Of a stretch of 5,232 nt of DNA, positions 2,452 to 4,809 are shown piece by piece (position 1 is the stretch's first letter; each line of letters opens with the position of its first letter). The notes below the pieces were generated by a model, which was given only the letters and a program-made list of their open reading frames with translations, searched no databases and was not told the origin of the DNA. Location: the IMG/VR virus record IMGVR_UViG_2690316188_000006; one strand, given 5' to 3'. Both the position numbers and the translations under genes were made by a program. The DNA comes from a virus (taxonomy: Duplodnaviria; Heunggongvirae; Uroviricota; Caudoviricetes).

Positions 2452-2871
2452 TTAAGAGGCTTTTTGTTTTTTCTTTCGTGCTAACTCTTCGTAAATTGCA
2501 TTGTACTTCTGTTTTTTCTCTTCAAGAGTTTTTAAAAGTTCATCTGTCTCACTGTCAGGGAGCTCGTCCAGAAGGTCAATGATGATTTTTTGTCTTGGAT
2601 TTAACTCCTGATAGAAACGTACCTGTCCACTTTCTTCTGTATCCTCTCCCAAAAGATAGGTTGGTGTTGTTCCTATTAGTGTTGCTAATTCCCTTAATTT
2701 CTCCCGGCGAGGAATTGTTTCGCCATTAAACCATTTGCTAACCGCTTTTGGTGTTAATTTCATTCGACGGGCAATTTCTGCCTGCCTTCCATGTTGTTCA
2801 TAACCAGCATTTTCACAGGCTAGCGCAAGCCTACTGGCGAACTCTTTACGCGCTTTATCTTCATGAACCAT
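2452..2871 (-). CDS. Prophage repressor, XRE-family HTH (CI/DicA-like), 139 aa
   Basis: N-terminal HTH_XRE-like segment (QAEIARRMKLTPKAVSKWFNGETIP) and an acidic/helical C-terminal tail reminiscent of DicA. Divergent from the cro-like gene. No SD before ATG 2871 (leaderless-type start). Confidence 0.85.
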   Translation of the reverse strand: MVHEDKARKEFASRLALACENAGYEQHGRQAEIARRMKLTPKAVSKWFNGETIPRREKLRELATLIGTTPTYLLGEDTEESGQVRFYQELNPRQKIIIDLLDELPDSETDELLKTLEEKKQKYNAIYEELARKKKQKAS

Positions 2872-2950: not shown

Positions 2951-3205
2951 ATGAACCAGAAAACACTTGAAGATGTAATCAAAACTGTTCGCGTTGCTGT
3001 TGTGGCCGACGTTTGTGGTGTCAGCCAAAGAGCAATCTATAAATGGATGGATAACGGAAAATTGCCTCGCACAGAATATACCGGCGAAACAAATTACGCT
3101 GAAAAAATCGCTCTTGCATCAAACGGATTATTTTCTGCCGATGCAATTTTAACTATTGGCAGGAATAAAACTACTACGAAAAAGCTGATGGGAGTTGATT
3201 CATGA
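2951..3205 (+). CDS. Cro-like / YdaS-family HTH regulator (84 aa)
   Basis: ATG at 2951 with GAGGGTGAT upstream. HTH-like segment VADVCGVSQRAIYKWMDNGKLP. First rightward gene opposite the repressor. The longer ORF-track start (2879) lacks an RBS and would overlap the operators. Confidence 0.8.
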   Translation: MNQKTLEDVIKTVRVAVVADVCGVSQRAIYKWMDNGKLPRTEYTGETNYAEKIALASNGLFSADAILTIGRNKTTTKKLMGVDS

Positions 3206-3627
3206 AAATCAAGCATGAACACATCCGCATGGCGATGAATGCCTGGGCGCATCCGGACGGCGAAAAAGTACCGGCTGCGAAAATTACCAAAGCATATTTC
3301 GAGCTGGGAATGACGTTCCCGGAACTGTATGACGACAGCCATCCGGAAGCCCTGGCTCGCAATACTCAGAAAATTTTCCGCTGGGTGGAGAAAGACACCC
3401 CTGATGCGGTTAAAAAAATTCAGGCGTTGTTACCAGCTATCGAAAAAGCAATGCCACCTCTGCTGGTGGCCCGAATGCGCAGTCATAGCTCAGCCTATTT
3501 TCGGGAACTAGTGGAGACGCGGGAACGACTGGTGAGAGACGCTGATGATTTTGTCGCAGTGGCGATCGCTGGTTTCAACCAGATGAATCGTGGTGGCCCT
3601 GCAGGAAATATTGTGGCTGTGCATTGA
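3202..3627 (+). CDS. ydaT: YdaT-like protein (141 aa), proposed CII-analog regulator / formerly called a toxin
   Basis: Start MKIKHEHI... resembles Rac YdaT as I recall it. ATG 3202 overlaps the cro-like stop (ATGA, 4-bp overlap). Position is second gene of the rightward operon. Confidence 0.8.
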   Translation: MKIKHEHIRMAMNAWAHPDGEKVPAAKITKAYFELGMTFPELYDDSHPEALARNTQKIFRWVEKDTPDAVKKIQALLPAIEKAMPPLLVARMRSHSSAYFRELVETRERLVRDADDFVAVAIAGFNQMNRGGPAGNIVAVH

Positions 3628-3698
3628 CTCGCAATATTCATACCGGATCACTTCCGGCAATTTGTGAGTAAAAAGATTCGGTATCAAAAGAGGTGAGT

Positions 3699-4769
3699 AT
3701 GGCTAACGCCTGGCTCAGATTATGGCATGACATGCCAAATGACCCTAAGTGGCGAACAATTGCCAGGGTGTCAGGGCAGCCAATTGCAACAGTGATGGCA
3801 GTGTATATCCACCTCCTGGTGAGCGCGTCACGAAATGTCACGCGAGGTCACATTGATGTCACGACAGAAGATTTGGCAAGTGCGCTCGACGTGACAGAAG
3901 AGGTAATTGATTCAATTTTGCAGACGATGCAGGGGCGGGTACTTGATGGTGATTTAATCACTGGATGGGAAAAACGCCAGGTGCTTAAAGAGGACAACGG
4001 CAATATTTCGCAAACCGCAAAATCTCCTGCAGAGCGCAAGAGGGCGCAGCGAGAGAGGGAAAGAAAGCGGGAACAAAATGGCGATTGTCACGGCGCGTCA
4101 CGAAATGTCACGCACATGTCACGACGAGTCACGACAGATAAAGATACAGATAAAGATACAGATCAAGAAGATCAAAACACTATGGTCCATGGCGTAAAAA
4201 ACGCCACGAACCAGGCAGGGGATGTTCAGACCGTCAATCCTGGTCAGCCAGCAGGCACGACACCGGAAGCCGATTCAGCGTATGCGCTGAAAGCCGATTC
4301 GGGCGCTGTGCAGCAGGTGATGACCGCAAGGCCGGAGCAATCACACCAACTGCAGCAGCCCGAAGCCGATTCCGCCATTCAGCGGGAAGCCGATCGGGTA
4401 GTCCCGGAAAACACCGGTCAGTCTGTGGGACGAGTGGATTATCCGGATGTGTTCGAACAGGTCTGGCGGGAGTACCCGTTGCGTGCCGGAGCAAACCCGA
4501 AGAAATCCGCTTTCAGTGCCTGGAAGGCCAGATTACGCGAGGGGGTGCCACCAGAGGCCATGCTGGATGGCGTGAGGCGTTACGCAAGATACTTGGCGGC
4601 TACCGGGAAAGCGGGAACGGAATTTGTTCAGCGAGCGACGACGTTTTTTGGACCGGACCGGAATTTTGAGAACCCCTGGTTTCTCCCGGTAAGCGGCACG
4701 AACAACCAGCGTTGTGTGAATCATATTACTGAACCGGATAACGAAATTCCGCCGGGCTTCAGGGGGTAA
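3699..4769 (+). CDS. Phage replisome organizer / replication initiator (lambda O functional analog), 356 aa
   Basis: N-terminus AWLRLWHDMPNDPKWRTIARV... resembles the phage replisome-organizer N-terminal domain. Basic linker ERKRAQRERERKRE. Internal iteron arrays. AGAGG 5 nt before ATG 3699 (the track's GTG at 3693 is an alternative). Stop TAA at 4767-4769. Confidence 0.85.
   Translation: MANAWLRLWHDMPNDPKWRTIARVSGQPIATVMAVYIHLLVSASRNVTRGHIDVTTEDLASALDVTEEVIDSILQTMQGRVLDGDLITGWEKRQVLKEDNGNISQTAKSPAERKRAQRERERKREQNGDCHGASRNVTHMSRRVTTDKDTDKDTDQEDQNTMVHGVKNATNQAGDVQTVNPGQPAGTTPEADSAYALKADSGAVQQVMTARPEQSHQLQQPEADSAIQREADRVVPENTGQSVGRVDYPDVFEQVWREYPLRAGANPKKSAFSAWKARLREGVPPEAMLDGVRRYARYLAATGKAGTEFVQRATTFFGPDRNFENPWFLPVSGTNNQRCVNHITEPDNEIPPGFRG
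3825..3867. repeat. Iteron-like array 1: four GTCAC(G/A) repeats at 10-11 bp spacing inside the replication gene
   Basis: GTCACG at 3827, 3837, 3858 and GTCACA at 3847. 3823-3843 is a 21-bp exact copy of 4093-4113. Confidence 0.5.
4085..4174. other. Putative origin of replication: iteron array 2 (five GTCACG repeats, 10-11 bp period) followed by an AT-rich tract with a tandem 12-mer and two GATC sites
   Basis: GTCACG at 4087, 4097, 4107, 4118, 4128. Then GATAAAGATACA twice (4137-4160) and GATCAAGAAGATC. Lies in the linker region of the initiator gene, as lambda ori lies within O. Confidence 0.5.
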
Positions 4770-4809
4770 GTGTTAATTTCTGGTCATGAGGTAATTTTCA
4801 GGAGGGCTT

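Follow-up and report, generated by a model that had tools for sequence, protein, structure and literature searches.

Among the described origins of phage replication, those most similar to the element considered here lie inside the genes of their initiator proteins. The origin of phage lambda combines iterons and an A/T-rich tract centrally within gene O (PMC7466680), and oriL of phage SPP1 combines direct repeats and an A/T-rich unwinding element inside gene 38 (PMC6316719); the title of Missich et al. 1997 further states that G38P binds two discrete regions, oriL and oriR. Here we describe a locus of comparable design in a stretch of 5,232 nucleotides from a Caudoviricetes virus (IMG/VR record IMGVR_UViG_2690316188_000006; hereinafter the window), which represents the early region of a Qin/Rac-like lambdoid prophage of Escherichia coli. 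Two arrays of the hexamer GTCACG, an upstream array 1 and a downstream array 2 that is joined to a purine-strand A/T-rich tract, are embedded in the codons of one initiator gene. We propose that positions 3827-4213, which include both, very probably represent the vegetative replication origin of this DicB/DicF-type prophage, situated inside its own initiator gene.

The lambda iterons are about 19 bp long with internal dyad symmetry, and the lambda origin also features a strand bias in its A/T region with a palindrome to the right of it. Like that origin, including its Stx-phage variants with six iterons, the element in the window lies between the codons for the presumed origin-binding N-terminal domain and those for the presumed loader-binding C-terminal domain; direct repeats are followed by an A/T tract; the gene is part of an operon of the pR-cro-cII-O type of lambdoid phages; modules are swapped at the origin boundary; and some relatives are paired with a lambda-P-like protein. 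Unlike lambda, its cores are asymmetric, 6 bp long and repeated with a 10/11-bp period, they form two arrays ~260 bp apart with one of these within the N-domain codons, and this phage has no P gene. The original prediction, drawn from the sequence alone, held that the locus mirrors the lambda origin. This is borne out for the layout, i.e., repeats and then an A/T tract inside an initiator gene, but as an analogy only: a full-length Pfam scan at E<=0.01 returned 0 families, and a scan with the N-domain at E<=1 returned no lambda-O-type family.

With SPP1, the locus shares direct repeats and an A/T-rich element within a replisome organizer gene, the SPP1 repeats being at a similar gene offset (~360-450 nt). 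It differs from SPP1 in having its putative binding regions 260 bp apart in one gene, as against ~13 kb, and in its proteobacterial hosts. Homology to SPP1 G38P was considered and rejected: hhalign gave a probability of 0.1% (with a single-sequence target, hence at low sensitivity), and PF09681, the family of Gram-positive phage replisome organizers, gave sub-threshold matches only, namely a near full-length one to the window's protein (16.4 bits against a cut-off of 23.3) and others in 9/29 relatives (best E=8.4e-4).

Second sets of iterons are known from P1 (oriR/incA), F (ori2/incC) and P4 (ori/crr). As in these replicons, the same short repeat occurs here in two clusters, just one of which is beside a putative A/T-rich unwinding region. 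In contrast, their second set flanks the rep gene or is distant from it and has a demonstrated control or enhancer role, whereas here both sets are inside coding sequence. As plasmids and phage P4 also have separate sets of iterons, the bipartite layout is not new in kind; likewise, the initiator family is very common and an iteron origin inside an initiator gene is already known as a kind. Literature searches for the motif, for the family and for the exact sequences recovered no publication on this origin in the library searched; an earlier in-silico mention may exist.

Two iteron arrays in the initiator gene

GTCACG occurs 10 times in the window against 2.1 copies expected, and at least 10 copies were seen in 0/200 dinucleotide shuffles. 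Five of these copies constitute array 2, with starts at 4087, 4097, 4107, 4118 and 4128 and spacings of 10, 10, 11 and 10 bp, precisely the cores and the 10-11 bp period that had originally been predicted; Tandem Repeats Finder reports the region as a 10-bp array (4086-4136). That prediction placed an origin within the initiator gene, which the comparison presented below supports, but it named the repeats of array 2 only. The element is bipartite, with the overlooked array 1 lying ~260 bp upstream and having an exact 21-nt string, gcgcgtcacgaaatgtcacgc, in common with array 2. The features are collected in Table 1.

Table 1. Features of the window that are discussed in the text, with coordinates counted from its first nucleotide.
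Feature	Coordinates	Strand	Remarks
Initiator (replisome organizer) gene	3699..4769	+	356 aa; from the open reading frame list
Array 1 (upstream iteron array)	3827..3863	+	GTCACG at 3827, 3837 and 3858, GTCACA at 3847; 10/11-bp period
Inverted GTCACG, single copy	3890..3895	-	~30 bp downstream of array 1
Basic helix codons	4026..4076	+	AERKRAQRERERKRE, aa 110-126; candidate iteron-reading or co-evolving element (AlphaFold2 model)
Array 2 (downstream iteron array)	4087..4133	+	five GTCACG cores; 10/11-bp period
Purine-strand A/T-rich hexamer tract	4134..4178	+	putative DNA-unwinding element; ACAGATAAAGAT x2.9, then GATCAAGAAGATCAAAAC; two GATC
Imperfect 13-bp inverted repeat	4183..4213	.	TGGTCCATGGCGT-aaaaa-ACGCCACGAACCA; lies within a block of 45 nt (4176-4220)
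cI-like repressor	2452-2871	-	
cro-like gene	~2951-3205		
cII/YdaT-like gene	3202-3627		directly upstream of the initiator gene
DUF977/Ren-like gene	start 4810		next after the initiator gene

An AlphaFold2 (AF2) model of the initiator has a mean predicted local distance difference test score (pLDDT) of 54 and is confident in the two domains only. In this model, the N-domain (aa 1 to ~85) is helical, aa 110-126 form a basic helix, aa 128-245 are disordered and the C-domain covers aa 246-330. Array 1 codes for aa 43-55, a loop of low pLDDT that joins N-domain helices 3 and 4, and array 2 for aa 130-145, within the linker and right after the basic helix; the location that had been predicted for the array, in the linker immediately following a basic stretch, agrees with this layout. 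The peptides specified by the two arrays, ASRNVTRGHIDVT and ASRNVTHMSRRVT, are alike.

Conservation of the arrays across relatives

For comparison, an alignment with diverged full-length homologues served to fetch 60 loci from gamma-, beta- and alpha-proteobacteria, with each bacterial species represented once; the 56 genes analysed are that of the window and 55 relatives from among these loci. GTCACG is the commonest hexamer of the gene in ~30 of the 60 loci, where it occupies the same two gene offsets (~nt 129-160 and ~nt 380-430), and at least 2 copies of one hexamer are present at both conserved positions in 44/56 genes. Array 1 recurs at the first of these offsets in most relatives. We counted 69 arrays of at least 3 identical hexamers with 10/11-bp spacing in the initiator genes (47.8 kb) and a single one in 277 kb of flanks, a ~400-fold difference in density. 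In the relatives, array 2 has 2-6 exact copies, usually 3-5, together with degenerate ones, at the equivalent position. The inverted GTCACG also recurs, at gene offset ~192 in many GTCACG-type relatives, with its synonymous positions 71-86% conserved. In the complete 46-kb phage Tritos, the GTCACG clusters are array 1 and array 2 and no others.

Neighbouring cores are spaced by 10 bp in 90 cases and by 11 bp in 24; the core starts are distributed over the three codon phases as 50/75/53, and the invariant part is the 6-bp core with weak flanks. Across 21 GTCACG-type loci with a gene GC content of 42-69%, the major-allele frequency reaches 0.97 at third codon positions within the array-1 cores, compared with 0.51 for the third positions of residues that are at least 95% conserved (Mann-Whitney p=1.4e-5). 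The repeats are accordingly preserved at synonymous sites in homologs, the pattern that had been put forward as a check on the predicted origin. Further, two distant members of the family (L057 and L059) retain GTCACG with the upstream array moved to another loop of the domain; because a different loop is used, it is the upstream array itself that is needed and not a given peptide. Taken together, these observations show that the constraint acts on the DNA rather than on the peptide.

They also bear on whether the repeats could be a by-product of coding for protein repeats or a low-complexity linker (SRNVT, DKDT), with no function as DNA. Consistent with such an origin, both arrays yield similar peptides, the tract (aa 146-160) yields DKDTDKDTD, and linkers tolerate repeats. 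Against it, one and the same hexamer occurs in each of the three reading frames, with the frames of array 2 and of the tract varying by locus; the synonymous positions of the core are nearly invariant across genes of 42-69% GC; and the strict period of 10/11 bp is not divisible by 3. As the frame analysis already contradicts it, we assign this explanation next to no probability.

Among close E. coli variants of the gene (P0003, P0020 and P0022), indels fall exactly at both arrays and in the linker: P0003 has additional iteron-encoded residues at both arrays, and P0020 lacks most of array 2 and of the tract and is probably a defective prophage copy.

The purine-strand tract and the sequence beyond it

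Array 2 is followed at once by a 12-mer, ACAGATAAAGAT, repeated x2.9 at 4134-4168 with 95% matches (Tandem Repeats Finder). The local GC content of 27.5% (4140-4179) is the minimum within 3600-4800, with a strong skew of A over T. An AT-rich tandem 12-mer was part of the original prediction; the repeat is certainly there but is better described as a conserved purine-strand hexamer repeat. The two GATC sites noted after it are present at 4161 and 4170, and GATC shows no enrichment across the window as a whole. Counts of internal promoters and terminators were no higher than chance.

Over 48 loci, the 40 nt that follow the last iteron of array 2 have a purine content of 73% and an A/T content of 65%, as against 57% and 44% for the genes, and the tract is also present where the gene is only 31-35% A/T, including in genes of GC-rich hosts. 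The hexamers of the relatives, on the coding strand, are AGATAA, AGATAC or AGAGGA. Their translation differs between loci (DKDKD, IREEE or RLDKRR) with the reading frame; hence, the tract, like the arrays, is conserved as DNA. Since the AGA periodicity is maintained where A/T is only ~50%, it may be more than a passive A/T-rich region.

The tract is pertinent to another explanation of the arrays, namely that they are initiator-binding sites for control only, acting in autorepression by roadblock or in copy-number handcuffing, with the true origin elsewhere in the phage. Iteron plasmids do have separate control arrays (P1 incA, F incC), array 1 has no adjoining A/T tract, and both arrays are within the initiator's own transcription unit, such that binding could alter expression. 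In contrast, array 2 invariably adjoins a purine-rich A/T tract of the kind typical for unwinding elements, the 46-kb Tritos genome has no other iteron cluster, and the position between the codons of the N- and C-domains is that of the proven lambda and SPP1 origins. We accordingly consider a purely regulatory role for the two arrays improbable, though it may hold for array 1 alone.

Beyond the tract, the imperfect inverted repeat at 4183-4213, folded as a single-stranded DNA hairpin, has a dG of -8.7 kcal/mol (z=-3.05 against shuffles). By eye, the 45-nt block that contains it stands out from the remaining linker by a far higher conservation in an alignment of relatives that have the window's C-domain, proteins 45-55% identical to that of the window and differing iteron types; the block may have been kept as DNA or as a short peptide motif. 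The inverted repeat is a possible third element of the origin. That such a repeat follows the tract universally was considered and rejected, as the enrichment over all loci is only modest, with a score of 5.5 against 4.8 and the background maximum reached in 27% of loci; it would rather seem to be a feature of one clade.

Other relatives have different sequences in this region. A conserved block, AAACCCCACACATAACGCGCACGTGCGCGAG, lies ~20-60 nt past the tract in L004, L008, L041 and L063, from hosts that range from Escherichia to a Sphingomonas contig and with differing iteron types; most of these loci hold a CGCGCACGTGCGCG palindrome, and the O157 copy (L063) is shorter and without the palindrome. 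In L004 and L063 the next gene encodes a lambda-P-like loader. In four further loci (L005, L021, L050 and L012), hairpins after the tract have one common loop, TCACT(A/T)CGTTC, and differing stems (CACCTACC/GGTAGGTG, CCCACC/GGTGGG, ATATCC/GGATAT and CCTCCTCT/AGAGGAGG), the segment coding for 'SLRS'; the stem differences look like compensatory changes.

Iteron types and the basic helix of the initiator

The initiator has a match in phrog_3729, 'replication initiation protein', with E=2.9e-256, and both NCBI and one phage record call it 'phage replisome organizer'. Its subfamilies have GTCACG, GTAACG or CGAACG(C) at the two conserved positions, and the two arrays of a locus always agree in type, as they likewise do in three further loci that were fetched through their proteins. 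The type is mirrored in the basic helix. A glutamine (AERKRxQRER; Q117 in the window's protein) is found in 26/26 GTCACG-type loci, tree outliers included, a tryptophan (AERAKxWRE) in ~20/21 CGAACG-type loci, and a tyrosine or phenylalanine in 5/5 GTAACG-type loci. At the protein level, among 135 cluster representatives, with the loop peptide as a proxy for the iteron type and with statistics that ignore phylogeny, the helix residue fits the type in 71/92 (GTCACG), 25/26 (CGAACG) and 8/10 (GTAACG) cases. On the strength of these correspondences, we hypothesize that the basic helix is the iteron recognition element.

Two other parts of the protein were examined as readers of the iterons and rejected. 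The globular N-domain has no discriminating column once the loop is masked, and a neighbor-joining tree fits the iteron type only loosely. As for the loop peptide encoded by array 1, L057 and L059 keep GTCACG with array 1 elsewhere, and L028 has a long insertion at this point.

The correspondence between iteron and initiator is also relevant to the question of whether the hexamers might be sites for a different protein, such as a cII/YdaT-like regulator or a host factor, or serve in recombination or packaging. A YdaT/cII-like gene is found immediately upstream, and binding by the initiator is itself a prediction. However, the iteron type follows the initiator sequence across three proteobacterial classes with varied neighbour genes, and the arrays are confined to the initiator gene; this renders such alternative functions highly unlikely.

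Certain relatives of the N-domain (L045, L056, P0210 and P0255) are without iteron arrays and without the purine tract. They display the motif YVYYV...G(I/V)S.NPW.R after the N-domain, a segment which resembles domains of the GIY-YIG/T5orf172 type, and the N-domain may have been reused in them for another function.

Downstream genes and the exchange of modules

A scan of 39 genes directly downstream of the relatives recovered 11 lambda-P-like proteins, 4 IstB/DnaC-like proteins, 3 DnaB helicases and 1 G39P-like protein. This context of P-like, DnaC-like and DnaB neighbours points to the gene being an initiator. The relatives with the window's C-domain (L147-L149) have an IstB/DnaC-like loader between the initiator and a DUF977/Ren-like gene; in the window, the DUF977/Ren-like gene comes directly after the initiator, and its lineage appears to be without any phage helicase loader. 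In Tritos, the initiator is the sole recognisable replication gene of a complete phage. As there is no loader gene in this phage, the host DnaB-DnaC is presumably used.

In this regard, the C-terminal tail of the initiator, NHITEPDNEIPPGFRG (aa 335-356, 4701-4766), weakly matches the C-terminus of DnaT (NCBIfam E=0.002; PDB 6aep and 9zbt with E=9e-4 to 0.02), the DnaT chains in the PDB aligning to aa 98-122 of the C-terminal fragment. With the full-length DnaT equivalog model NF002770, the score is 17.8 bits against a cut-off of 201 and the last 24 residues alone align. The resemblance hints at mimicry of the restart primosome.

In the copy from E. coli O157:H7, the N-module and the origin (4+5 iterons) are those of the window, the C-domain is a different, DnaT-like one, and 'replication protein P' comes next; the N-module plus origin is all that it has in common with the window. 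Stx phage 75/02 displays the converse arrangement, having the C-terminal part only in common with the window. These comparisons show that modules are exchanged just after the tract, with an origin-specific N-module being combined with a loader-specific C-module, as in the O genes of lambdoid phages.

A proposed mechanism and its difficulties

From the architecture of the locus, its conservation at the DNA level, the co-variation of the two arrays and the gene context, we infer the following course of binding, melting and helicase recruitment, and a part for array 1 therein. The N-terminal part of the initiator would bind the GTCACG cores through its helical domain plus, or mainly through, the basic helix (aa 110-126). 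Given the 10-11 bp period of the cores, the bound monomers would be aligned on one face of the duplex, both at array 2 and at the auxiliary array 1 ~260 bp upstream. The monomers might then oligomerise, perhaps looping or wrapping the intervening DNA, and thereby strain the purine tract (4134-4178) until it melts. Finally, the C-domain would recruit the replicative helicase: in relatives, via a lambda-P-like or DnaC-like loader of the phage or via a phage DnaB; in this phage, via the host DnaB-DnaC, perhaps through the DnaT-like tail.

Several points weigh against reading the element as an origin operated in this manner. On the side of the DNA, 8/56 genes are without clear arrays and a few others have just one; the core, just 6 bp long and weakly flanked, is a small target for specific recognition; a search for DnaA boxes near the arrays found none; and array 1 could be regulatory and lie outside the origin proper. 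On the side of the protein, Foldseek searches of the PDB with the N-domain fold gave weak winged-helix matches only (CAP, ArsR and MarR, E>4) and a PDB sequence profile search with the N-domain yielded nothing credible; because this fold lacks a confident identification, the DNA-binding surface cannot be placed on it. The covariation of helix and iteron is imperfect (71/92 for glutamine), and phylogeny confounds it, as does the fact that the helix codons are physically linked to array 2. Lastly, no phage helicase loader was found in the window, so that the delivery of the helicase is a purely inferred step.

One may go further and envisage a distinct, proteobacteria-wide class of bipartite phage origins in the reading frame of the initiator, in which: (i) the DNA-binding domain has a permissive loop in which array 1 must lie, array 1 cooperating with array 2 by looping or wrapping of ~230-260 bp; (ii) one basic helix alone recognizes the 6-bp core by way of a simple code (Q=GTCACG, W=CGAACG, Y/F=GTAACG); and (iii) the conserved (AGAnnn)n tract is a sequence-specific single-strand element with a role like that of the DnaA-trios rather than a passive unwinding region. 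We offer this extension tentatively, and as a whole hold it to be rather unlikely.

Prevalence, implications and genomic setting

The origin-bearing half of the initiator gene is present in 2078/5426 complete E. coli genomes (38%), UTI89 and O157:H7 among them, and the family of the initiator N-domain comprises 2274 clusters of proteins at 50% identity. DNA near-identical to that of the window is found in phages vB_EcoS-689R5, Tritos and Evi, and a scan of viral contigs for added diversity returned nothing but identical E. coli copies. The combination of initiator and origin is therewith among the commonest replication modules of E. coli prophages, and the origins of hundreds of prophages could be annotated from sequence alone. 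An origin with three natural specificities would allow predictions regarding prophage induction and the replication-dependent amplification of prophage-borne virulence genes. It would also offer a compact natural system for the co-evolution of an initiator with sites that lie in its own codons and, possibly, new orthogonal replicons for genetic tools.

With respect to the remainder of the window, the DicF antisense small RNA is encoded at 141-192 on the minus strand (Rfam RF00039, 76.7 bits, E=3e-16); a lone GTCACG at 154 falls within it and bears no relation to the origin. Besides the genes of Table 1, there are further small genes with no assigned function. The region between DicF and cI holds two pairs of long direct repeats, 314-514 with 1202-1402 (98% identical) and 925-1204 with 2011-2290 (94%), in the arrangement A...B-A'...B'. 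They copy a gene of 77-78 aa (phrog_751, with no assigned function) and flank differing small genes, which looks like the outcome of a tandem duplication with replacement of the cargo.

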